The translations under genes and the position numbers were made by a program. Shown here piece after piece: positions 3,498-58,821 of a stretch of 64,000 bases of DNA; position 1 is the stretch's first letter, and each line of letters starts with the position of its first letter. The notes under the pieces were generated by a model, which saw nothing but the letters and a program-made list of their open reading frames with translations, did no database searches and had not been told where the DNA came from. This stretch comes from Oscillospiraceae bacterium (lineage in GTDB: Bacteria > Bacillota > Clostridia > Oscillospirales > SIG627): positions 475-64,474 of the forward strand of contig SVQQ01000007.1 of NCBI GenBank assembly GCA_015065265.1, written 5' to 3'.

Positions 3498-3504
3498 CTG
3501 TTAT

Positions 3505-4151
3505 CCTTTCTTCGTCTCTTTATGTGCATTTTTGGTTAAAATACAGAAATGAAAAGATTATTAGAATTTTAATAAAACAAAATCATATACAAAAATTGAA
3601 TTTTTTATAGTTTTCTTTATATACAGTTTTCTGCGGAAAGAAATTCAAAGAATTTCTTGCAATTTTATCCAATTTCATTTCTTCGCGTGTTGCTCGGACT
3701 GCTGTACCCTTGTACAGCGACGCCGTCGCACTCCGCGATTTTTCCTCAAAAATGCTCTACTTTTTTGGGCTGTGGGCTGAGATTTAAAGATTAAAAATTT
3801 TATTTTCCCTCAAAGATACTCTCTCACTCTTTTCGGGTTGTGGGCTAATGTCTTTACAATGGATAGCAGAAGACGCGAGTACTAGCAAAAATCGTCTTTA
3901 ATCCTTGTATATAGGCTAATTTCAAATAAATTTATTGAAGATTTGCAAAGCAAATCAACCTTAATTCTGCATTTTGCATTTTGCATTCTGCATTTATAAT
4001 AATTGAAGATTTGCGAAGCAAATCAACCTTAATTTTACATTTGAGCGGGGGATTTTTGTGGTGTAGCGTTTAGCGGAACCTACAAAAATTCAAGCCATAC
4101 AGGGAGCGTAGCCAAGCATTTTGCGAGGCTAAAGCGAGTCGTACGGCATTT
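3505..4151 (+). repeat. Repeat locus A: m1 variant, m3, m4, two m5, m6, two half copies of the palindromic element, m7
   Basis: Direct matches to other loci. Region 3505-3732 resembles 49383-49610 and 4038-4151 resembles 49607-49721. Hairpins lie at 3638-3658 (AAGAAATTC/GAATTTCTT) and 3701-3718 (GCTGTAC/GTACAGC). m6 (3853-3919) resembles 34031-34098 inverted. Confidence 0.9.
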
Positions 4152-10110: not shown

Positions 10111-10166
10111 TTTTGACATTTTTCTGCTTGGTTGCCCCTGTAAAATAGATGAAAAGGGGGATTTCT

Positions 10167-10931
10167 ATGGAATTTAAGAACATTAAGGCAGACAGAATCA
10201 TTTTGTCTGAAAAGAGCGCTCGGCACAAAAGCGGTGAAATTATAGCCCTTGCTCAAAGTATAAATTATTTCGGCCTTCTTTCGCCAATAACCGTGAGAGA
10301 ACTTGCCCATAGTGACAGATATGAGATTATATCCGGAAATAAGCGTTTTTATGCTTGTAGACTTGCAGGAATCGAAATAATTCCTTGCTATGTAACAACA
10401 GCACATCGAGAGATTGCACGTGTGGCATTAAAAAGAAAAGAAAAACAAGACTTTTTTCTTGAAGCAGACAACGTCAGAGATGCTATGTTATCTAAGAACA
10501 TATCTGCAGAAGAATTTGCAAGTGCCACCGGATACACTCCACCAGAAATTCTGGGAATGTTGCGCCTTGCCAATATGACGGATTTTGAGAGAGAAATGGT
10601 ACGTCGCAACGGTGTAAGTCGAGAAATAGCCCTTGAAATAGGACGTTTTGAGTATTTCATCACGAGAACCGAGTTGTTATCCGAGGTGGTAAAGGGTAGG
10701 CTAAAACTCGGAGAAACCGTCGCCATGTGCGAAAAAGAAAGACGTGGAAAAAGGCTCCCCGCAAAGCCAAAGGCGGTCAGAAGTCCGAAATTCAGGGATT
10801 TGAGGCTATTTGACAACACAATTTCACGAGCACTATCTATTTTAAAAGAGGCTGGTGTTCACGCAGAAGTAGAAACTTATTCAACTGACGGCGGAAAAGA
10901 ATATAAGATTGTAATAGCCGAAAAGGTATAA
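10167..10931 (+). CDS. ParB/Noc-like N-terminal-domain protein (divergent paralog)
   Basis: Contains LSPITVREL...YEIISGNKRFYACRLAG (ParB box region). I prefer the start at 10167 because AAAGGGGGA lies 5 nt upstream; the ORF track starts at 10149. Confidence 0.7.
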   Translation: MEFKNIKADRIILSEKSARHKSGEIIALAQSINYFGLLSPITVRELAHSDRYEIISGNKRFYACRLAGIEIIPCYVTTAHREIARVALKRKEKQDFFLEADNVRDAMLSKNISAEEFASATGYTPPEILGMLRLANMTDFEREMVRRNGVSREIALEIGRFEYFITRTELLSEVVKGRLKLGETVAMCEKERRGKRLPAKPKAVRSPKFRDLRLFDNTISRALSILKEAGVHAEVETYSTDGGKEYKIVIAEKV

Positions 10932-11052
10932 ATAAGGCTTAGCATCTCAAAACGGGGTCTAATACAGTAAAAAATAATTTCTTTTAAAAAACGAGATTAT
11001 GTTTTCATATCATCAACGAAGTCTTTTGCTACGTCTAACTATAAGAAGTCAA

Positions 11053-11068
11053 TGTTTCACGTGAAACA
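11053..11068. promoter_or_regulatory. parS site
   Basis: Second perfect TGTTTCACGTGAAACA, located upstream of soj. Confidence 0.85.
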
Positions 11069-11100
11069 TTGAAAAAACTATACATATTTTCTCTTTTCCA

Positions 11101-11129
11101 TTGACAATAGGGTAAAAAATTGATACAAT
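11101..11129 (+). promoter_or_regulatory. Candidate sigma-A promoter of soj-spo0J
   Basis: TTGACA, a 17-nt spacer, then TACAAT. Confidence 0.6.
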
Positions 11130-11226
11130 ATAATATATACTAATAAAGGAAGATTTTCGACAAAAACTCCTTTTGATGTAGTTTTCCTTAATGATATTAC
11201 AAAAACAGGATAAAAAGGGATTAAAA

Positions 11227-11994
11227 ATGAGTACAATAATAGCATTTGCCAATCAAAAAGGCGGTGTGGGAAAGACCACGTCTGCTGTTAATATTGCGGC
11301 AGATTTAGGGTGTTTGGGCAAAAAGACTCTTCTGGTAGACTGCGACCCTCAGGGGAACGCTTCCTCGGGTGTTGGTGCAGAAAATAGCGAAATTACCCTA
11401 TATGATATGCTTTTTTCGGGACTTGAAGCAAAAAAAGTGATACAAAAGACTAAATTCAAGAACCTTGACGTTATACCGTCAGATATGAACTTGGCGGCGG
11501 CAGATATTGCTCTTGCAGACGAAAAGAACAGAGAAAGTAAGTTAAAGGTGGCTTTTGACAGTATAAAAGAGGAATATGACTACATAATTCTTGACTGTCC
11601 GCCATCTCTTAGCCTTATTACACTTAACGCTCTCACAGCGTCGAATTACGTGGTAGTGCCTATGCAGTGTGAATATTTCGCTCTTGAAGGCTTATCACAA
11701 CTTGTTTTCACTATAAAGCAGGTAAGAAGGCTCTATAACCCAAACCTTGACCTTTTAGGCGTAATACTTACTATGTACGACGGAAGACTTAACCTCACCG
11801 TTCAGGTAATGGAAGAGGTTAAAAAGCACTTTCCAGGCAAGGTGTTCCGCAACTCCATTCCTCGAAACGTGAGACTTTCAGAAGCGCCAAGCCACTCTAA
11901 ACCCATTAACTATTACGATAAATTCTCAAGAGGTGCATTGAATTATATGGAAGTTGCCCGTGAGTTGATAGAGCGAGCAGAACACAATATATAG
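11227..11994 (+). CDS. soj: Chromosome partitioning ATPase ParA/Soj
   Basis: MSTIIAFANQKGGVGKTT is the deviant Walker A motif. The ORF-track start at 11191 is probably too early. Confidence 0.9.
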   Translation: MSTIIAFANQKGGVGKTTSAVNIAADLGCLGKKTLLVDCDPQGNASSGVGAENSEITLYDMLFSGLEAKKVIQKTKFKNLDVIPSDMNLAAADIALADEKNRESKLKVAFDSIKEEYDYIILDCPPSLSLITLNALTASNYVVVPMQCEYFALEGLSQLVFTIKQVRRLYNPNLDLLGVILTMYDGRLNLTVQVMEEVKKHFPGKVFRNSIPRNVRLSEAPSHSKPINYYDKFSRGALNYMEVARELIERAEHNI

Positions 11995-12048
11995 TGGTTC
12001 GCTTTAACTAAAACACAATATATAGTATATTATACATATAATTACGAG

Positions 12049-12954
12049 GTGGATATGGAAAAGAAAGGATTAGGAAAAGGACTTAACACGTTTTTCCTTG
12101 ATACAGGGATTGACGAAGGGGTAAAAGAAATTGAAATTTCAAAAATATTCCCCGACCCTGACCAACACAGAAAGACTTTTTCTCAAGAGACCATAAGAGA
12201 ACTTTCAGACTCAATAAAGGTACACGGTGTAATTCAACCTTTAATCGTCAGAAAAGACGGAGAGAATTACAAAATAGTTGCAGGAGAACGTCGCTATCGT
12301 GCGTCAATTCTTGCAGGACTTGAAAAACTCCCTGTTATCGTCAGAGACGACATATCCGACAGAGATGCTGCGGAAATTGCACTGATTGAGAACCTTCAAA
12401 GAGAAGACTTAAACCCTGTCGACGAGGCAAAAGGATACGAAAAACTCATTTCCGACTTCAACATAACGCAAGACGAGGCGGCTCAGAGAGTGGGCAAGTC
12501 CCGAGTTGCAGTAACAAATGCTCTAAGACTCTTAAAACTTCCCGACGAAGTGCTTGAACATCTTAGAAACGCCACAATTTCGGCAGGTCACGCAAGAGCC
12601 CTTTTACCTCTTAAAAACAAAGAGGATATTTTGGAAATGCTCTCGAGAATAATAAACGAAGGACTGTCTGTCAGAGATACGGAAAACGAAGTAAGGTGGA
12701 CTATAAACACCTTCATCGACACTCCCGTAGTAGAGGAAAAACCCCTTATAAAGAAGGGCTTTTCCATTAGTGACGAGTATTTGTTATCCGTACAGAAACT
12801 TATGGCAGAAAGGCTTTCAAGACGAGTAAAAATCAAGCAGAAACCAGGTAAAACTTCGGGAAAAATAACTCTCGATTACCATTCTTCTGACGACCTTGAA
12901 ACAATACTTTCCGCCCTTTGCGGAGAAGATTTTTTAGATTTACTTGACAAATAA
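12049..12954 (+). CDS. spo0J: Chromosome partitioning protein ParB/Spo0J
   Basis: Contains GVIQPLIVRK...IVAGERRYRASILAG and an HTH. The start could instead be the ATG at 12055. Confidence 0.9.
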   Translation: MDMEKKGLGKGLNTFFLDTGIDEGVKEIEISKIFPDPDQHRKTFSQETIRELSDSIKVHGVIQPLIVRKDGENYKIVAGERRYRASILAGLEKLPVIVRDDISDRDAAEIALIENLQREDLNPVDEAKGYEKLISDFNITQDEAAQRVGKSRVAVTNALRLLKLPDEVLEHLRNATISAGHARALLPLKNKEDILEMLSRIINEGLSVRDTENEVRWTINTFIDTPVVEEKPLIKKGFSISDEYLLSVQKLMAERLSRRVKIKQKPGKTSGKITLDYHSSDDLETILSALCGEDFLDLLDK

Positions 12955-15643: not shown

Positions 15644-16210
15644 CGTCTTTTTGGTTAAAACAGTTAATATAGTGCAGAATGCAGAATGCAAAATGCTGAA
15701 TTAAGGTTGATTTGCTTCGCAAATCTTCATTCATATACGTTTAGCGGAAAATCCGCTAAACGCACATAAATCAATTCAAATGCGAAGCTTTTGTTCCTTT
15801 ATTCTGCATTTTGCATTTTGCACTCTGCATTTACAACATACACACTAGAATATCAAATATATAAAGCGTAGCCTATGAAAATAGACTACGCTTTACTATG
15901 TCTTTATAATATCATTTCATTTCGGTTTTCACCAAAGAGACGAAAACCTCCGCACACAACCCGAAAAGAAAAGAGTATCTTTGAGGGAAAATCAACGTTT
16001 TACGAAGCCGTCGGCGTACTTACGTACGGCAGTGCGAGTAAACGTTGAAGAAATGAAATTGGAATTGTTCAAAAGAAGTTCGCAGAACTTCTTACATTAG
16101 AAAATTGTTGATTTGAGTGGCAAATACAAAAGAAATAGCCTATAAAAAATAGGCTACACCTTATTAAAAAAACACAACCCCATTTCATTTCGCTTTTCAC
16201 CAAAGAGACG
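15644..16210 (-). repeat. Repeat locus B. From the S41 stop on the minus strand: m1-m2-m3-m4-m5-m1-m2-palindromic element. A truncated + oriented m1 abuts the MORN gene stop.
   Basis: m1 copies lie at 15644-15661 (+), 15914-15942 and 16181-16210 (-). m2 lies at 15862-15895 with a degenerate copy at 16131-16165. m3 is at 16073-16093, m4 at 16003-16060 and m5 at 15943-15993. Confidence 0.9.
15671..15832 (-). mobile_element. ~163-bp palindromic MITE-like element (full copy)
   Basis: Imperfect ~34-bp terminal inverted repeats made of TGCARAA heptamers flank three hairpins: GATTTGC/GCAAATC, GTTTAGCGGA/TCCGCTAAAC and CAAATGC/GCATTTG. Confidence 0.6.
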
Positions 16211-33901: not shown

Positions 33902-34427
33902 AAGTGCAGAATGCAGAATGCAAAATGCAGAATTAAGGAACAAATGCTTCGCATTTGAGTTGATTTTATTATAAGTTTAGCGGAAAATCCGCTAAACACT
34001 TAAAAAACTTAATCATTATAAAAGAGCGTTTTAGTCTATATACAAAGACTAAATCAACTTTTTGACAGTACTCACGTCTTCCGCTTTTTATTGTAAAAAC
34101 TTTAGTTCACAGCCCGTAAAAGCAAGAGTATCTTTGAGGGAAAATCGCTAATATAATTCAGAGTGCAGAATGATGAGTGCAGAGTTAAGGACGATTTGCT
34201 TTGCAAATCTTCAATAATTATAAGTTTAGCGGAAAATCCGCTAAACGCACATAAATCAATTCAAATGCGAAGCATTTGTTCCTTTATTCTGCATTTTGCA
34301 TTTTGCACTCTGCATTACAATATCCACAGAAGAATAGGCAACAAATAAAGCATAGTCCATTTTCATAGACTATGCTTTACTAAATCTCTTATAATGTCAT
34401 TTCATTTCGGTTTTCACCAAAGAGACG
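33902..34427 (-). repeat. Repeat locus C. From the RNHCP gene on the minus strand: m1-m2-palindromic element-m5-m6, then an inverted half element.
   Basis: m1 lies at 34397-34427, m2 at 34346-34379 (AAAGCATAGTC/GACTATGCTTT), m5 at 34101-34148 and m6 at 34031-34098. A half element (+ orientation) lies at 33902-33997. Confidence 0.9.
34157..34316 (-). mobile_element. ~163-bp palindromic MITE-like element (full copy)
   Basis: Near-identical to 57131-57293 and to the reverse complement of 52290-52452. Confidence 0.6.
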
Positions 34428-34741
34428 TCATTTTCAGGGTTCGTAAGTTTGATGAGGAGGGCAGTGTTGTCGTCGTCAGCACACTTATTGCGTACTATCT
34501 CACCGCACTTTTCACAGCGGAAGACTATTATAAAGCCTTTTTTCGCATCGGGCAGGGTCTGGACGGGGCGTAAAACTCCCCGACAGGTGTTCTTTCTGTC
34601 CCCCGGCATCACGTCCACGTGCAAAGAGGACAGACAATAGGGACAGTGATTGCGAGAGGTGTAATGAAGGGGTGAAACCTCTTTTTTACAAACTTCGCAG
34701 ATAAAACCGTTATCGTTTTTCTTAAATCTTTTTTCTTCCAT
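34397..34741 (-). CDS. RNHCP-domain zinc-binding protein
   Basis: Contains CEVCKKEV...YTSRNHCPYCLSSLH...CEKCG. The last ~10 codons (DVSLVKTEMK) are encoded by repeat module m1. Confidence 0.7.
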   Translation of the reverse strand: MEEKRFKKNDNGFICEVCKKEVSPLHYTSRNHCPYCLSSLHVDVMPGDRKNTCRGVLRPVQTLPDAKKGFIIVFRCEKCGEIVRNKCADDDNTALLIKLTNPENDVSLVKTEMK

Positions 34742-45759: not shown

Positions 45760-46125
45760 CGTATCTTTGGTTAAAAACGAAATGAAAAAACTACTTAATT
45801 TTTAATAGAGTGCACTTTGTTTTTATGGACTATACTTTGCTGTTCTCTTTCTTTTCGGGTTGTGTGCTTAAGTTTTTGTCTTTTTGGTTAAAAACGAAAT
45901 GATATCATATACGTTTAGCGGATTTTCCGCTAAACTTATATAATATTTAATTCAAATGCGAAGCATTTGTTCCTAAATTCAGCATTCAGCATTCTGCACT
46001 CTGCATTTAAGATGTTTAGCGGATTTTCCGCTAAACTTATATAAAAAAGTGCAGTCTATTTTTCATAGGCTACACTTTTTGAAGTTATATTAACTTTTTA
46101 TTTTTATGTTTTCACCAGAAAGACG
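45760..46125. repeat. Repeat locus D. Forward: m1, degenerate m2, m5, m1, half palindromic element, extra GTTTAGCGG hairpin, m2. An inverted m1 abuts the radical-SAM gene stop.
   Basis: m1 copies lie at 45760-45788 and 45877-45903 (+) and at 46095-46125 (-). The hairpin GTTTAGCGGATTTTCCGCTAAAC occurs at 45913-45935 and 46014-46036. A TIR lies at 45970-46008 and m2 at 46044-46080. Confidence 0.85.
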
Positions 46126-47084
46126 TCAACGGAAAATTCGTCAGACAACTTTTTGAGGTTAACCTTCTTTTGCCCAAGGTATTGGGACAGGAGTTTTTCA
46201 GGAACTTCAAGAAAGACCTTTTCACCTTTTTTAAGGTCCATTTTGCGAAGTTTTTCCCGCATTTCGTCAAGGCGTAACCGAGATAAAATTAACTCCCCTA
46301 TTGCATCGTGATAGTCTCCTGCAATAACGTCGTCGGAGTGTAAACCTTCTCCGGATTGAAGGCCTATTCGGATAACGTCGACGTTGTTTTTTAAAAAAAG
46401 ACCAACAACTTTTGCCCCACGCTCCACAGTTTCGTCAAGGGTAGGCGGTTGATACTTTCCCGAAAGATAAAGGTCACCAAGGGCGGTGGAACTAAATACG
46501 ACAGTGGGGTAAACTCGGGCGCTTGTAGCCCCGTGGGAGATTATGTCAAGGGCAGTCTGCCTTTCATTTTCCTCGTTTCCCCCAAACATACCCGTCATCA
46601 TCTGCCCTGTCAGTTCAAAACCCTCTTTTACAATCAAATCCATTGCGTAAAGTGAGGTTTTGGCGTCGTGACCTCTCTTGTTAAGGGTCAAAACTTCGTC
46701 GTTTGTAGACTGAATTCCAAGTTCGATATTTGCAACTTTGTAAAACTTTAAAATACTGAGTATCTCTTCGTCAATATAATCGGGTCTGGTGGAAAGTCTT
46801 ATGGACGAAACTCGCCCCTCTTTGATGAATTTATTTGCGGTTTCAAGAAGTTTTATCATAAGAGAACGCTCAATTCCTGTAAAACTTCCGCCAAAAAATG
46901 CCACTTGAGGCACAAAGGACGAAATTGTCCCAAGTGCCTTTTCGATTTCTTCTTCAACTCCGTCCACGTCAAAGGAAGTTCTTCCCGAAATAGTCCTTTG
47001 ATTACAGAAAACACAATCGTTGGGGCATCCTATGTGGGGTACGAAAATAGGGATATTGGCGTGACGTTTCATGCCCTCTTCCAC
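46104..47084 (-). CDS. Radical SAM protein (ELP3/COG1243-like)
   Basis: Contains IPIFVPHIGCPNDCVFCNQ (CxxxCxxC). The last 7 codons (DVFLVKT) are encoded by repeat module m1. It overlaps cysS by 16 nt. Confidence 0.75.
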   Translation of the reverse strand: MEEGMKRHANIPIFVPHIGCPNDCVFCNQRTISGRTSFDVDGVEEEIEKALGTISSFVPQVAFFGGSFTGIERSLMIKLLETANKFIKEGRVSSIRLSTRPDYIDEEILSILKFYKVANIELGIQSTNDEVLTLNKRGHDAKTSLYAMDLIVKEGFELTGQMMTGMFGGNEENERQTALDIISHGATSARVYPTVVFSSTALGDLYLSGKYQPPTLDETVERGAKVVGLFLKNNVDVIRIGLQSGEGLHSDDVIAGDYHDAIGELILSRLRLDEMREKLRKMDLKKGEKVFLEVPEKLLSQYLGQKKVNLKKLSDEFSVDVFLVKT

Positions 47085-48460
47085 TTAGTTCCCTGAGGGG
47101 TATCTTCAAGGACAATTCCCTTGTTTTTGAGTTCTTCTCTGATTTCGTCGGCTCTCGCATAGTTCTTTTCTTTCTTTGCCGAAATTCTCTCGGAAATCAG
47201 GTCTTCAATCCACTTTGTGTCCTCTTCTTCTTCGGGAACGAGGAAGCCCATAAGTCCTACAAGTTCCTTATATATAGCGTAAATTTCTTCAAGGTCGCCT
47301 TTTGTAAGAGAAGTGTCGGAAATAAGGGTGTTAATCTTTCTTATCATTTCAAAAATGGCAGAAATTCCGTCTGCGGTATTGAAATCGTCGTCCATTGCGA
47401 CAATGAATTTTTCGCGGTATTCACCCAGTGCATTTATGTCTTCGGTCTTTGTGACACCGCCTTCTTTTGCATTTTTAAGAGCGTACTTTATTCCGTTTTC
47501 ACAGTTGTACATACGTTCAAGAGAAGCCTTTGACTGCTCTAAAATGTCTGCAGAGAAGTTAATGGGACTTCTGTACTGAGCAGAGACAAGGAAAAAGCGA
47601 ATTGCAGGATAGGAGTACTTTGCCGCAGCGTCACGGACGGTGAAGAAATTGCCAAGAGACTTTGACATTTTCTTGTTATCCACGTTTATATATCCGTTGT
47701 GGATAAAGGCACGGCAGAAAGGAACGCCGAAAGCGGCTTCAGACTGTGCAACTTCGTTTTCGTGATGTGGGAAAGTCAGGTCCTGACCGCCTCCGTGAAG
47801 GTCGATTGTCTTTCCGAGATATTTATCAACCATTGCCGAGCACTCGATATGCCAACCCGGTCTTCCTTTTCCCCAAGGGGAGTCCCAATAGGGTTCACCC
47901 TCTTTGTACGCTTTCCACAGAGCGAAGTCAAGGGGGTCGTGTTTTACGTCGTTTACGTCAATTCTCGCTCCGCTTTCAAGGTCGTCTACGTCAAAACCGC
48001 CAAGTCTGCCATAGTCCTTGAATTTACGTGCCGAGAAGTAAACGTCACCGTTTTCGGCAGGGTAAGCGTAGCCTTTTTCGATAAGGATTTTAATGATATT
48101 TATAATTTCTTCCATATTTTCCGTGGCTCTTGGATGGAAGGTGGCGGGAGTTATGCCAAGGCCTTTTGCATCGGTGAAATATTCTTCAATATACTTGTCT
48201 GCAACTGCCTTGACTGTGGTGTTTTCTTCCTTTGCTCTCTTTATCATTTTGTCGTCGATATCGGTGAAATTCTGTACGAAAGTTACCTTGTTTCCTCTAT
48301 ATTCGAGGTATCGGCGAAGCAGGTCGAAAATAACGAAACAACGTGCGTTTCCTACGTGGAAATAGTTATAAACCGTGGGGCCACAGGCATACATTCTCAC
48401 GGTGTTATCCTTAAAAACAAGTTCCTCTTTTTTCTTTGTAAGTGAATTATAAAACTTCAT
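47069..48460 (-). CDS. cysS: Cysteinyl-tRNA synthetase
   Basis: Contains HVGNARC (HIGH) and KMSKS. Confidence 0.95.
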
Positions 48461-48461
48461 A

Positions 48462-49094
48462 TTATTCTCCTTTTTCCAGTGTCTCTATTTTCTTTTGTAG
48501 TTTTTCAATTTCCGCCCTCATTCTGCAAAGTTCTTGGGAAACGGGGTCGGGAATGTGTATCTGGTCAAGGTCGGATTGTCTCTGACCGTCCCTTTTTACA
48601 ACTCGTGCAGGAGCGCCAACAGCAGTTGAATCGGGGGGAATTTCGGTAAGAACCACTGACCCTGCGGCAATTTTTGCCCTGTCCCCTACTTTGAAAGGGC
48701 CAAGAACCTTTGCCCCTGCGCCAACGAGGACACCGTTACCTAAGGTGGGATGTCTCTTTCCAATATCTTTTCCCGTACCGCCAAGGGTTACTCCTTGGTA
48801 AAGTGTACATTCATCACCAATTTCGGCAGTTTCGCCAATAACTACCCCTGAACCGTGGTCAATGAACAGCCCTCTGCCAATAGTCGCACCGGGGTGTATT
48901 TCAATGCCTGTAAAAAATCTGCCCGTTTGGGAGATAAGTCTGGCAATAAAGAAAAGTCGGTGTCTATAAAAGAAATTCGCAATTCTGTAATAAATCAAGG
49001 CGTGAAAGCCTGAATACAGGAAGAAAATTTCAAAAATATTTCTCGCGGCGGGGTCGCGGGATTTAATCGACTTCAAATCCTCAAATATCTTCAT
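48462..49094 (-). CDS. cysE: Serine O-acetyltransferase
   Basis: Has hexapeptide repeats and GIEIHPGATIG. Confidence 0.9.
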   Translation of the reverse strand: MKIFEDLKSIKSRDPAARNIFEIFFLYSGFHALIYYRIANFFYRHRLFFIARLISQTGRFFTGIEIHPGATIGRGLFIDHGSGVVIGETAEIGDECTLYQGVTLGGTGKDIGKRHPTLGNGVLVGAGAKVLGPFKVGDRAKIAAGSVVLTEIPPDSTAVGAPARVVKRDGQRQSDLDQIHIPDPVSQELCRMRAEIEKLQKKIETLEKGE

Positions 49095-49101
49095 TTAGGT
49101 T

Positions 49102-49721
49102 CCTTTCTTCGTCTCTTTGGTGAAAAACGAAATGAAATTGGGTATAGAATATAGTAAGGCGTAATCTGTTTTTAAAGTTTATGCTTTGTTTGTCATCTGT
49201 TCCAATATATAATTTTTTCAAAGTAAGAAGTTCTGCGAACTTCTTTTCATCTATTTCAATTTCATTTCTTCGTTTCTTGCTCGGACTACTGTACATAAGT
49301 ACAGTTACGCCTTCGCAATAAACGATTTTCCCTCAAAGATACTCTCTCTTTTCATTTGGGTTATGTGTTGAAGGCTCAAAGTCCTTTCTTCGTCTCTTTG
49401 GTGTGCATTTTTGGTTAAAATACAGAAATGAAAAGGTTATTAAGTTTTTAATAAAACAAAAACCATTCACAAATCTTAACTTTTTCAAAGCATTCTATAT
49501 ATACAGTTTTCTTCGGAAAGAAATTCTACGAATTTCTCTTGAATTTTTTATTTCATTTCTTCGCGTGTTGCTCGGACTGGCGTACCATTGTACGCCGACG
49601 CCTTCGCACTTGAGCGGGGGATTTTTGTGGTGTAGCGTTTAGCGAAACCTACAAAAATTCAAGCCATACAGGGAGCGTAGCCGAGCAGTGTGTGAGGCTA
49701 AAGCGAGTCGGACTGCATTTT
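49102..49721 (+). repeat. Repeat locus E, lying between cysE and its T-box: m1, degenerate m2, m3, m4, m5, then an m1 variant, m3 variant, m4, m7
   Basis: m1 lies at 49110-49138 and 49391-49435, m3 at 49225-49245 and 49519-49537, m4 hairpins at 49288-49305 and 49579-49596, m5 at 49321-49382 and m7 at 49607-49721. Confidence 0.9.
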
Positions 49722-49771: not shown

Positions 49772-49990
49772 AAAAAACCGCCCTCTGTCAAGAGGCGCGG
49801 TTGCGCGGTTCCACTCTTATTTATAACTTTTTCTTTTTTGCTTGTCCCGATTTCTCGGCGGCCGCACTTTCACAAAATAAGCAATAGACGTTCACACCAA
49901 ACACGTCCTCTCTGAATTGCTTTTTTCTTGTTACTCTTGCCAAACAGACTATCCTCTGCCGACTTGCAATATATTAAATTCAAAGTAGTT
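49772..49990 (-). promoter_or_regulatory. T-box riboswitch leader, probably Cys-specific
   Basis: The minus strand reads AAGAG-TGGAACC-GCGC-AACC-GCGC-CTCTT. This is the canonical antiterminator with a 7-nt UGGNACC bulge, where N=A fits the tRNA-Cys discriminator U73. It overlaps the terminator CCGCG(C)CTCT-TGAC-AGAGGGCGG-TTTTTT. Upstream elements are AGAGAG and GGTG. A candidate UGC specifier lies at 49864-49866. Confidence 0.85.
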
Positions 49991-52178: not shown

Positions 52179-52596
52179 TGTCTCTTTGGTGAAAATACAG
52201 AAATGAAATGATATTATAAAGACATAGTAAAGCGTAGTCTTTAAAAAAGGCTACGCTTTATATATTTGATATTCTAGTGTGTATGTTGTAAATGCAGAGT
52301 GCAAAATGCAAAATGCAGAATAAAGGAACAAATGCTTCGCATTTGAGTTAATTTTATTATACGTTTAGCGGATTTTCCGCTAAACTTATAATTATTGAAG
52401 ATTTGCAAAGCAAATCAACCTTAATTCTGCACTCATCATTCTGCACTCTGAATTATATTAGCGATTTTCCCTCAAAGATACTCTTCTCTTTTCATTTAGG
52501 CTGTGTGTTGAAAGTTTGAGTCTCTTTGGCTAAAACCGAAATGAAATTATAATAAATAGTAAAGCATAGTCTATAAAAATAGGCTATGCTTTATAT
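52179..52596 (+). repeat. Repeat locus F: m1-m2-palindromic element-m5-m1-m2, starting 2 nt after the M23 stop
   Basis: m1 lies at 52179-52209 and 52518-52547, m2 at 52228-52260 and 52560-52593, and m5 at 52461-52517. Confidence 0.9.
52290..52452 (+). mobile_element. ~163-bp palindromic MITE-like element (full copy, reference orientation)
   Basis: The left TIR is TGCAGAGTGCAAAATGCAAAATGCAGAATAAAGG. The right TIR, reverse-complemented, is TTCAGAGTGCAGAATGATGAGTGCAGAATTAAGG, matching at 27 of 34 positions. Three internal hairpins are centred on GTTTAGCGGATTTTCCGCTAAAC. Confidence 0.6.
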
Positions 52597-56175: not shown

Positions 56176-56303
56176 TTTAGCGGAAAATCCGCTAAACACG
56201 GAGAATGTTTTTTCAAAAAAGAGACAAAAAAGTATAGCCTGTTTATATAGGCTATACTTTTTAAAATCTAAATAAACTTTTTTAGGCTTTAACCAAAGAG
56301 ACG
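56176..56303 (-). repeat. Repeat locus H (minimal): GTTTAGCGG-type hairpin, m2, partial m1 abutting the mgtC stop
   Basis: TTTAGCGGAAAATCCGCTAAA lies at 56176-56196. The m2 variant AAAAAGTATAGCCT/AGGCTATACTTTTT lies at 56227-56265. The m1 remnant GGCTTTAACCAAAGAGACG lies at 56285-56303. Confidence 0.8.
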
Positions 56304-57102: not shown

Positions 57103-57942
57103 TATTTTTGAGGGAAAATCGCTAATATAATTCAGAGTGCAGAATGATGAGTGCAGAATTAAGGTTGATTTGCTTTGCAAATCTTCAATAATTATAAGTT
57201 TAGCGGAAAATCCGCTAAACTTATATAAAAACCAACTCAAATGCGAAGCATTTGTTCCTTTATTCTGCATTTTGCATTTTGCACTCTGCATTTACAACAT
57301 ACACACTAGAATATCAAATATATAAAGCGTAGCATATTTTCATAAGCTACGCTTTACTAAATCTTTATACTAACTTTTCATTTCTGTATTTTCACCAAAG
57401 AGACGAAAATTTAAGCACACAGCCCGAAAAGAGAAGAGTATCTTTGAGGGAAAATCGCGGAGTGCGAAGGCGTCGGCGTACAATGGTACGCCAGTCCGAG
57501 CAACACGCGAAGAAATGAAATTGGAATAATTAAAAAGAAGTTCGTGAGAACTTCTTACATTAAAAGAGTTGTACAAAGAAAAAGAAAATAAATAAAGCGT
57601 AGCCTTTTTTAAAGACTACGCTTTACTATGTCTTTATAATATCATTTCATTTCTGTATTTTCACCAAAAAGACGAAAATTTAAGCACACAGTTTAAATGA
57701 AAAGAGAGAGTATTTTTGAGGGAAAATTCGCAATCCCGAAGCCCCGTCGCTGTACTTACGTACAGCAGTGCGAGGGAGGGCGAAAGAAATGAAAATAAAT
57801 CAAGAAAATTTCGAAGAAATTTTTTCATCAGAAGAAGTGTAAAATAACACAAAAAAACAAATAAAGCGTAGCATATTTTCATAAGCTACGCTTTACTAAA
57901 TCTTTATACTAACTTTTCATTTCGGTTTTAACCAAAAAGACG
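57103..57942 (-). repeat. Repeat locus G. From the fba stop on the minus strand: two full m1-m2-m3-m4-m5 units, then m1-m2-palindromic element-m5(partial).
   Basis: m1 copies lie at 57915-57942, 57641-57674 and 57375-57405, a period of about 270 bp. m2 lies at 57862-57895, 57593-57625 and 57323-57356. m4 hairpins lie at 57749-57766 and 57475-57492. m3 lies at 57802-57826 and 57535-57556. Confidence 0.92.
57131..57293 (-). mobile_element. ~163-bp palindromic MITE-like element (full copy)
   Basis: About 95% identical by eye to the reverse complement of 52290-52452. Confidence 0.6.
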
Positions 57943-57957
57943 ATAAAAGATACTAAA

Positions 57958-58821
57958 TTACGCTTTGTTGGCTGAGCCGAAGAGAGTGATCTTTTCCCTT
58001 ACAGTTTCCTTTATAGCCTCAACGCCGTCTGCAAGGAGTTTTCTGGGGTCAAAGCCCTTGCCCTGAAGGTCTTTTCCTGCTTCAACGTACTTGCGGGTAG
58101 CGGCAGCGAATGCAAGTTGGCACTCGGTGTTTACGTTAATCTTTGAAACGCCAAGGTCGATAGCCTTCTTAATCATTTCTGCAGGGATACCTGTACCGCC
58201 GTGAAGAACAAGGGGCATCTCTCCAACCTTTTCGTTTATCTTTTCAAGGGTGTCAAATCTTAAACCGCCCCAGTTTTCAGGATATTTACCGTGAATGTTA
58301 CCTATACCTGCGGCGAGCATTGAAACGCCAAGGTCGGCAATCATCTTACACTCGTCGGGGTCAGCGACTTCCCCGCCGCCAACAACTCCGTCTTCTTCGC
58401 CACCGATTGCACCAACTTCGGCTTCAAGGGAGAGACCCTTCTTTTCGCAAACTTCTACAAGTTCACGTGTCTTTGCGATATTCTCTTCGATGGGGTAGTG
58501 TGAACCGTCGAACATAATGGAAGAGAAACCTGCTTCGATACATTTATATGCGCCCTCGTAAGAGCCATGGTCAAGGTGGAGAGCAACGGGAACTGTGATG
58601 CCAAGTCCCTCAATCATACCTTCAACCATATTTACAACTGTTTTAAAACCGCACATATACTTTCCTGCTCCCTCTGAAACACCGAGGATTACAGGGGATT
58701 TCATTTCTTCTGCGGTGAGAAGGATAGCCTTTGTCCATTCAAGGTTATTGATATTGAACTGACCTACTGCGTAATGACCTTCTTTTGCTTTTTTGAGCAT
58801 TTCTTTTGCTGATACTAACAT
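57958..58821 (-). CDS. fba: Class II fructose-bisphosphate aldolase
   Basis: Begins MLVSAKEMLKKAKEGHYAVGQFNINN and contains HLDHG and LHGGTG. I prefer the start at 58821 because AGGAGA lies 7 nt upstream. Confidence 0.9.
   Translation of the reverse strand: MLVSAKEMLKKAKEGHYAVGQFNINNLEWTKAILLTAEEMKSPVILGVSEGAGKYMCGFKTVVNMVEGMIEGLGITVPVALHLDHGSYEGAYKCIEAGFSSIMFDGSHYPIEENIAKTRELVEVCEKKGLSLEAEVGAIGGEEDGVVGGGEVADPDECKMIADLGVSMLAAGIGNIHGKYPENWGGLRFDTLEKINEKVGEMPLVLHGGTGIPAEMIKKAIDLGVSKINVNTECQLAFAAATRKYVEAGKDLQGKGFDPRKLLADGVEAIKETVREKITLFGSANKA

Follow-up and report, generated by a model that had tools for sequence, protein, structure and literature searches.

What keeps three short hairpins recognizable in the intergenic DNA of an uncultured, gut-type Oscillospiraceae bacterium while the sequence of their stems changes from copy to copy? 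The hairpins, designated m2, m3 and m4, recur in a stretch of 64,000 nucleotides (assembly GCA_015065265.1, contig SVQQ01000007.1, positions 475 to 64,474 of the forward strand), which is called the window here. A preliminary description of the window had proposed that they are selected as structures, possibly at the RNA level and in one orientation. The window is part of the JGI metagenome contig Ga0257091_10001748, and identical contigs of other samples add 9.4 kb on its upstream side and 9.5 kb on its downstream side, which gives a composite of 83 kb, in which coordinates below 0 lie upstream of the window. Longer contigs of this organism (125-304 kb) are present in JGI samples 3300031555 and 3300032167 and in ENA assemblies. 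Nine copies of m4, nine of m3 and 15 of m2 were collected across this composite, to which the results below refer. The hairpins are interpreted here as modules of a lineage-restricted, mosaic family of intergenic repeats at gene boundaries that would act single-stranded, chiefly as RNA of one strand, an interpretation to which we give an even chance of being correct.

Covarying hairpins of a mosaic repeat family

The repeat family fills 11 regions, all of which are intergenic, and self-comparison assigns to it ~6.1 kb of the 83 kb, or about 7%. Its modules are the X box (GTCTCTTTGGTGAAAA..GAAATGAAA), a related box (GTATCTTTGAGGGAAAAT), the hairpins m2, m3, m4, hA (GTTTAGCGGA-www-TCCGCTAAAC) and hB, runs of the heptamer CTGCATT among the other modules, and an element designated E114; the mix differs from site to site. 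A typical unit reads stop codon, X box, m2, m3 and m4 domain on the strand that is designated strand B, and strand A is the complement of strand B. Three units form a ~270-bp tandem array at 57316-57960. The units are 75-96% alike, and no identical copies are present.

All six m4 hairpins of the preliminary description were recovered with the arms and loops that it gives, including the copy at 16013-16030 with its single mismatch (G.G on the + strand, C.C on the other). The core GTACNNNNGTAC has six matches in the window against 0.26 expected, and none of 100 shuffles reached six. Alignment of nine units revealed that the hairpin is helix P4, the tip of an imperfect palindrome of ~60 nt with four helices (P1-P4), and that the flanks of m4, which include TTTCATTTC, pair with each other through bases that differ by unit type. 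The flanking pair is TCGCG..CGCGA in the commonest unit type, TCGTTT..AAACGA in unit 49291, TTCGC..GCGAA in unit 57752, and TCAACGTTTAC..GTAAA(A)CGTTGA in units 16016 and -5859. Each copy folds alone into the identical four-helix rod. Among seven distinct aligned sequences, 91.2% of the cells of the domain are paired, compared with 74.3% in shuffles (0/500 reach the observed value) and 27-50% in slid controls, and both sides change in 11 of the 21 pairs. Between the helices, the bases that stay unpaired (CGAAG, CGTC, AGT and CGAG) are almost invariant, and CGTC directly precedes P4 on strand A in eight of the nine copies. A covariance model built from the alignment retrieved just the nine known copies from 196 kb, including 70 kb of related species.

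The m4 domains that contain the six hairpins are located at 3673-3745 (P4 at 3701-3718, GCTGTAC/GTACAGC), 15985-16058 (P4 at 16013-16030; P1 and P2, TCAACGTTT.AC/GTAAACGTTGA), 49260-49332 (P4 at 49288-49305, ACTGTAC/GTACAGT; P1, TCGTTT/AAACGA), 49551-49628 (P4 at 49579-49596), 57448-57520 (P4 at 57475-57492, GGCGTAC/GTACGCC) and 57720-57794 (P4 at 57749-57766; P1, TTCGC/GCGAA; P2, TCCC/GGGA). The copy at 49551-49628 scores 58.5 bits, and its + strand 3' half is cut off by E114. A kink-turn reading of the GAA/GA internal loop of m4 was dropped because the bulged strand does not have the required G-A after the bulge.

Both m3 stem variants that had been described, AAGAAGTTC/GAACTTCTT and AGAAATTC/GAATTTCT, are present, and two extra compensated variants were identified, namely AAGAAACTC/GAGTTTCTT upstream of the window and AAAAATTTC/GAAATTTT at 57803-57825 (- strand). 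Seven distinct m3 sequences have 96.8% of their cells paired, with both sides changed in three of nine pairs and one side alone in none. The variant AAGAAGTTC/GAACTTCTT is found at 16073-16093 (-) and 49225-49245 (+), and AGAAATTC/GAATTTCT at 49517-49539 (+). The m3 hairpin at 3638-3658 reads AAGAAATTC-aaa-GAATTTCTT on the + strand, which is orientation B, and the one at 57535-57556 (-) is followed by a T-run and was flagged as terminator-like on the - strand. Compensation also occurs in hB, where GATTTGC/GCAAATC and CAAATGC/GCATTTG stand in identical sequence context.

The proposal that the hairpins are conserved as structures is upheld by these results: every helix of the m4 domain covaries while its loop bases are fixed, m3 and hB compensate, and compensated changes are far more numerous than disruptive ones over the full set of m4, m3 and m2 copies. 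As read from sequence, covarying stems around fixed loops are the classical signature of a structure that would be used single-stranded. The near-invariant loops of m4 (CGAAG/CGAG, possibly a tandem G.A motif, and CGTC/AGT) suggest an additional, putative protein partner. With its four helices and 11 covarying pairs from nine copies of one genome, the m4 domain is a reasonable candidate for probing of its structure and for the identification of a putative binding protein.

Orientation of m2 and placement of the units

The m2 stem variants GCGTAG/CTACGC, GCATAG/CTATGC (34346 and 52560) and GTATAG/CTATAC (56227) are all present. A T.G pair at position 10 had been reported for five copies on the sense strand of the unit. 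On the strand defined by the flanks, it is confirmed for 52228, 52560, 15862 and 57593 and occurs in three further copies outside the window. The fifth copy, 46044, departs from this pattern, with its inner stem and loop inverted relative to the flanks, C.A at position 10 of the flank strand and a separate T.G at position 7. On flank-defined strand B, the 15 copies contain 210 Watson-Crick, 22 G.T, 2 C.A and 5 other cells, and the G.T pairs occupy several positions across subtypes (at least nine site/subtype combinations versus two for the other strand). Every copy has a T-rich tail on strand B, with 3-7 T in 8 nt, and 14 of the 15 are co-directional with an upstream gene, the exception being a decayed copy in the cysE leader. 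A consensus scan flagged m2 and m3 as terminator-like on strand B only, m2 being flagged at 57627-57591, 15896-15861 and 16157-16135.

The m2 hairpin therefore combines a G+C-containing stem-loop with a T-run and a position downstream of a gene, as intrinsic terminators do, and there is good support for a putative intrinsic-terminator role, exerted at the RNA level and in a single orientation. Its A-tract, stem of 14-17 bp and T-rich tail resemble those of the unique terminators of the same contig (7575-7606, 33848-33879 and 56141-56168). Unlike ordinary intrinsic terminators, m2 is a repeated family of related sequences inside a larger unit, and its tail is broken by A residues.

The m2 copies of the window on the - strand are located at 15862-15895 (with the T-rich tail, flagged as terminator-like), 34344-34381 (T.G at position 12; 16 nt past the stop codon of the RNHCP gene), 46044-46080, 56227-56262, 57323-57356 (the first of three in the tandem array), 57593-57625 (flagged as terminator-like) and 57862-57895 (60 nt past the stop codon of the aldolase gene). 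A short m2-like terminator hairpin is found on the same strand at 16136-16156, 55 nt past the stop codon of the S41 peptidase gene. The copies on the + strand are those at 52228-52260 (50 nt past the stop codon of the M23 peptidase gene) and 52560-52593, and the decayed copy at 49153-49190 within the cysE 5' leader.

For ten X boxes, the distance to the stop codon of a gene in the same direction is between -35 and +16 nt; among them are the copy of GTCTCTTTGGTGAAAA at 52180-52195 (+), 2 nt past a stop codon, and those at 15645-15660 (+), 16194-16209 (-), 34411-34426 (-), 46109-46124 (-), 56287-56302 (-) and 57926-57941 (-). Four genes, encoding a CNNM-type transporter, an RNHCP protein, a radical SAM protein and an HhH-GPD glycosylase, end inside repeat sequence. 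The open reading frames (ORFs) of the first three (-5312..-3933, +; 34397-34741, -; and 46104-47084, -, respectively) read into an X box and end there, so their last 7-12 codons are repeat-derived.

Four of the nine m4 units have the opposite orientation and belong to 5' leaders, those of polA, rrf2 and cysE, where m2 is missing or decayed. A reverse-complement X box with AAGAAAGGA is located at 49095-49126 (-), where it puts a Shine-Dalgarno sequence 6 nt ahead of the ATG of cysE. This module also stands before rrf2 (3498-3540) and before polA (upstream of the window), and the Shine-Dalgarno sequences that it supplies lie 6-7 nt ahead of the ATG of the three genes. A T-box leader was identified at 49788-49954 (-), upstream of cysE (48462-49094) and cysS (47069-48460). 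It has the motif AGAGUGGAACCGCGC and a UGC (Cys) specifier, and it scores 59.9 bits (E about 1e-12), under the Rfam gathering score of 93. About 690 nt of repeats separate the terminator of this T-box from the start of cysE, so strand A of two m4 units must be transcribed when the operon is on. Such read-through could be bypassed by an internal promoter, one of which is predicted at 49176-49148.

The interval between the HhH-GPD glycosylase gene and polA measures 4 and 2 nt in two related species (seryl-tRNA synthetases 83-84% identical), whereas it contains 522 nt of repeats here. The near absence of a gap in the relatives identifies the repeats as secondary insertions. The intergenic regions of both relatives are compact, with none of the modules at their loci, and relatives with 88% and 99% identical seryl-tRNA synthetases are represented only by short, compact contigs. 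The C-terminus of the glycosylase is here a new tail ending within E114, the end of which supplies the last 8 codons and the stop codon of the gene. Another copy of E114, ~110 nt long, is located at 49611-49720 (+) and truncates the m4 unit at 49551-49628; the others are found at 4042-4151, -134..-21 and -5844..-5744 (all +), giving four copies in all. The element (TGAGCGGGGGATTTTTGTGG...GGCTAAAGCGAGTCGGA, ~100-110 nt) has no Rfam match and folds better on the + strand (alifold -32 vs -21). It lies within or adjoining m4 units: in one unit upstream of the window its insertion point directly follows the m4 hairpin, and another unit is cut off by it, so modules nest one in another. With units that give new stop codons to four genes and separate a T-box from its operon, these loci exemplify repeats colonizing tightly packed gene boundaries.

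The mechanism that we favor is one in which the hairpins act single-stranded, chiefly as strand B RNA. On that strand m2, m3 and the entire m4 domain, each then followed by T-rich sequence, would stack up immediately behind genes as intrinsic terminators or as structures that protect 3' ends. Strand A of a unit, free of T-tails, would let transcription pass and would offer a -10-like box and a Shine-Dalgarno sequence, so that the unit could be tolerated in 5' leaders. Only foldability would count for the stems, so that copies could drift by compensated changes, and part of the compensation may be made in a single DNA-level step, by template switching or conversion between copies.

Several observations weigh against this mechanism. 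The suggestion of one RNA orientation is supported for m2, on the evidence of the G.T excess, the tails and the co-direction with upstream genes, but not for the three hairpins jointly. Both strands of the m4 domain fold equally well, with similar z-scores of -2.4 to -5.4, and its only two wobbles favor strand A, both in one copy interrupted by E114. Strand B points off the adjacent gene in the four opposite-facing units (-395, 3704, 49291 and 49582), which therefore cannot terminate that gene. A terminator role leaves the invariant internal loops of m4 unexplained, and the T-tails following m3 and m4 are short. In m3 the outermost pair alone is broken, as A.C on strand B in two types. Strand-biased C-to-T mutation on the coding strand, or amplification of one master copy, could account for the G.T bias of m2 or for part of it. 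All data also derive from one clonal genome: when strain variation was sought, contigs carrying proteins of the window from at least 10 other samples proved 100% identical over the shared parts.

A bolder version can be held only tentatively and seems doubtful to us: m4 might be a new structured motif with a protein partner and the mosaic a Firmicute counterpart of the REP-RAYT system (described below), or the unit might be a mobile gene-boundary cassette. If true, such a cassette would carry along a stop codon, a terminator, a promoter and a ribosome-binding site, and it could enter the 2-4-nt gaps between essential genes harmlessly.

Known repeat systems and rival explanations

The repeats are a new family of a known bacterial repeat kind (REP/BIME/BOX-type) and involve no new principle. 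Like the repetitive extragenic palindromes (REP) and bacterial interspersed mosaic elements (BIME) of E. coli and its relatives, they comprise many short, imperfect palindromes limited to extragenic DNA and combined with other motifs in variable order and orientation. They also share with REP and BIME a high copy number and a position mostly just downstream of coding regions, where they are plausibly transcribed and thought to terminate or stabilize mRNA. They differ from REP and BIME in showing no sequence similarity, in having a Firmicute host and in the form of m4, a 60-nt four-helix palindrome with conserved internal loops. REPs have an associated RAYT (Y1 transposase) gene, and none was seen here within the 83 kb of the genome reached. 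Tagged REPs of the GTAG and CGTC superfamilies have been reported mainly in Proteobacteria (PMC3733652). The CGTC that adjoins the m4 hairpin recalls the CGTC-tagged REPs, whereas the m4 stem has 7 bp and starts with G-C and the stem of CGTC REPs has 8-9 bp with A/T in the first two positions (PMC3733652).

Among Firmicutes, BOX of Streptococcus pneumoniae and bcr of the Bacillus cereus group are modular intergenic repeats with predicted stable RNA structures that influence neighboring expression. The present family is likewise modular, intergenic, gene-adjacent, predicted to fold as RNA and found in a Firmicute host, but its modules and sequences are unrelated, and only a few bases lie between its units and the stop and start codons that they adjoin. 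Correia elements of Neisseria and ERIC elements of enterobacteria are single-unit miniature inverted-repeat transposable elements (MITEs) with terminal inverted repeats and target duplications. They are comparable to the units described here as small inserted repeats with promoter, terminator or processing signals and an effect that depends on orientation, which in the present case is predicted. The units do contain inverted X/X' boxes, and the junction between the glycosylase gene and polA is empty in relatives; unlike in Correia and ERIC, no target duplication was identified here, and the architecture is mosaic. As for integron attC sites, the R''/R' core sites (RYYYAAC ... GTTRRRY) are not found in m4, the flanks of which are GGGAAAAT.. 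and ..AAGAAATGAAA, and the genes around the repeats are housekeeping genes in both orientations, unlike the ORFs of attC cassettes.

In comparison with Rfam 15, only 5S rRNA and one tRNA were matched at gathering scores, the repeats remaining unmatched; at E up to 5 nothing was matched over the m4 domain, and the sole relevant match was the unrelated T-box adjoining the repeats. A distribution pattern was built from the m4 flanks alone and matches eight of the nine copies here. It gave chance matches only in 185,579 species genomes (one per GTDB species) and likewise in JGI metagenome contigs, where the scan also missed the window's own contig and its identical copies, so absence from the metagenomes is weak, suggestive evidence. 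Scans of viral contigs for the family gave nothing real. A six-frame concatenate of the repeat pseudo-ORFs, used as protein bait, returned nothing among the matches listed, and the sole ORF called inside the repeats (71 aa) matched itself only. As far as could be searched, the family is restricted to one uncultured lineage.

An alternative to RNA-level action is that the hairpins are selected as single-stranded DNA, as recognition or cleavage substrates of an HUH/Y1 transposase that spreads the units and has the m4 loops as its contacts. REPs are substrates of RAYT, and the subterminal hairpins of IS200/IS605 elements are substrates of TnpA. Such a role would suit secondary insertions placed precisely at gene boundaries, modules nested in one another, m4 strands that fold equally well, and internal loops that are conserved where the stems vary, and the CGTC immediately before P4 on strand A recalls the CGTC-tagged REPs (PMC3733652). 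We regard it as unlikely, given that no transposase domain of any kind was found among the called genes of the 83 kb (the portion of the genome reached), that units only 75-96% alike include no identical pair to mark recent movement, that the stem rules of CGTC REPs are not followed, and that the orientation bias and T-tails of m2 suit RNA better. A further alternative, quite unlikely in our view, is that the stems have no structural function and are kept and changed by intrastrand template switching at quasi-palindromes and by gene conversion among hundreds of copies, so that one arm is copied onto the other. Template-switch mutations have been described in mechanism and footprint (PMC8794818). 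Such footprints, or those of conversion between copies of opposite orientation, are present here. The m2 copies at -5994 (TGTTTATATG) and 56227 (TATATAAACA) have the same flanks and, read on one flank strand, loops that match as reverse complements at 9 of 10 positions, the inner stem and loop of copy 46044 are inverted with respect to 15862, and the m4 loops fall into two classes (T-rich versus GTAA/ATAA). Several adjacent pairs also differ together between near-identical flanks, as in m4 units 3704 and 49582, which differ in four of six outer stem bases and in one of ~40 flank bases. Inverted loops between copies with identical flanks indicate that template switching or gene conversion at the DNA level contributes, and by this route part of the compensation arises in one step, without selection on RNA. 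Template switching, however, perfects palindromes, and the asymmetric loops of m4 stay unpaired and invariant amid four covarying helices; one-strand G.T pairs persist across diverged m2 subtypes, and the presence or absence of m2 follows the 3' or 5' context of the gene. DNA-level processes thus leave the invariant asymmetric loops and the one-sided G.T excess unexplained.

It is very unlikely that each unit is an independent small RNA gene, with a promoter, a body of m4 and m3 and an m2 terminator, and that the repeats form a paralogous family of such genes. Some promoter-like matches would agree with this, as would the -10-like boxes (TATAAT, TATTAT) between the X box and m2. With its covarying stems, conserved loops and low z-scores, m4 looks like a structured RNA. 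Promoter-like matches are no commoner than in shuffles, however, and none was found upstream of the m4 domain on either strand; a predicted strand B start just before m2 would give a ~45-nt transcript without m4, the order and content of modules vary between sites, and no Rfam match was obtained. The combination of compensated stems and inverted loops in one family provides a natural case for separating RNA selection from template-switch mutation, and it calls for caution with covariation measured on repeated DNA.

Other features of the repeats and the locus

A second composite element, a long imperfect palindrome, is found at 15668-15835, 33902-33999, 34150-34320, 52290-52455 and 57125-57292. 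In this element, GCAGAAT/CTGCATT heptamer runs flank the hairpins hB1, hA and hB2. The hairpins hB1 and hB2 are unable to pair mutually, and the predicted form is therefore a long stem bearing three local hairpins. Only weak Rfam matches resembling plant microRNAs were obtained for it (E 1e-5, far under gathering).

A module that follows the X box at 3549-3575, 45779-45805 and 49428-49454 reads as a putative mini-ORF of seven codons (MKRLLEF*, MKKLLNF* and MKRLLSF*). The Leu codons vary synonymously (CTA/TTA, CTT/TTA), and no clear Shine-Dalgarno sequence is present. At the other X boxes, the ATG of the mini-ORF reads ATG-AAA-TGA.

The seryl-tRNA synthetase of the contig has its nearest matches at 83-88% identity and matches proteins of metagenome-assembled genomes of Clostridia or Ruminococcaceae/Oscillospiraceae at 76-78%. 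TAnnTTTG-like boxes were considered as Bacteroidetes promoters, and Bacteroides small RNA families were considered as well; both were rejected, because the synthetase places the contig among Clostridia/Oscillospiraceae genomes. An ENA contig (L037) matches the window from 56664 on with 1 mismatch in 7.3 kb. Upstream of that point (L037 1-2764) it consists of unrelated sequence of higher GC content, with the break within the mgtC gene, and this part is probably an assembly chimera or a recombinant.

Two parA/parB-like gene sets were identified, at 10149-12954 of the window and at 11539-13246 of contig L031, just past the window end. The first set is beside serS, near the genes dnaA, dnaN, recF, gyrB and gyrA of the origin region (39.5-45.7 kb). 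The second belongs to a block that also has Gp49- and SpaA-type genes, and it comes after the 5S rRNA and tRNA genes at 63.7-64 kb. Without repeats and different between samples, this block probably represents an integrated mobile element.

The palindromic tetramers CTAG, GATC, GGCC, CCGG, AGCT, CATG and CGCG are strongly depleted in the 83-kb composite (observed/expected 0.09-0.33), which suggests heavy restriction-modification pressure. ACGT (1.12) and GTAC (0.82) are not depleted, and a reading of GTAC as a signal of restriction avoidance was dropped on this ground. The P1 helix of the commonest m4 domain contains CGCG twice despite the depletion of this tetramer.

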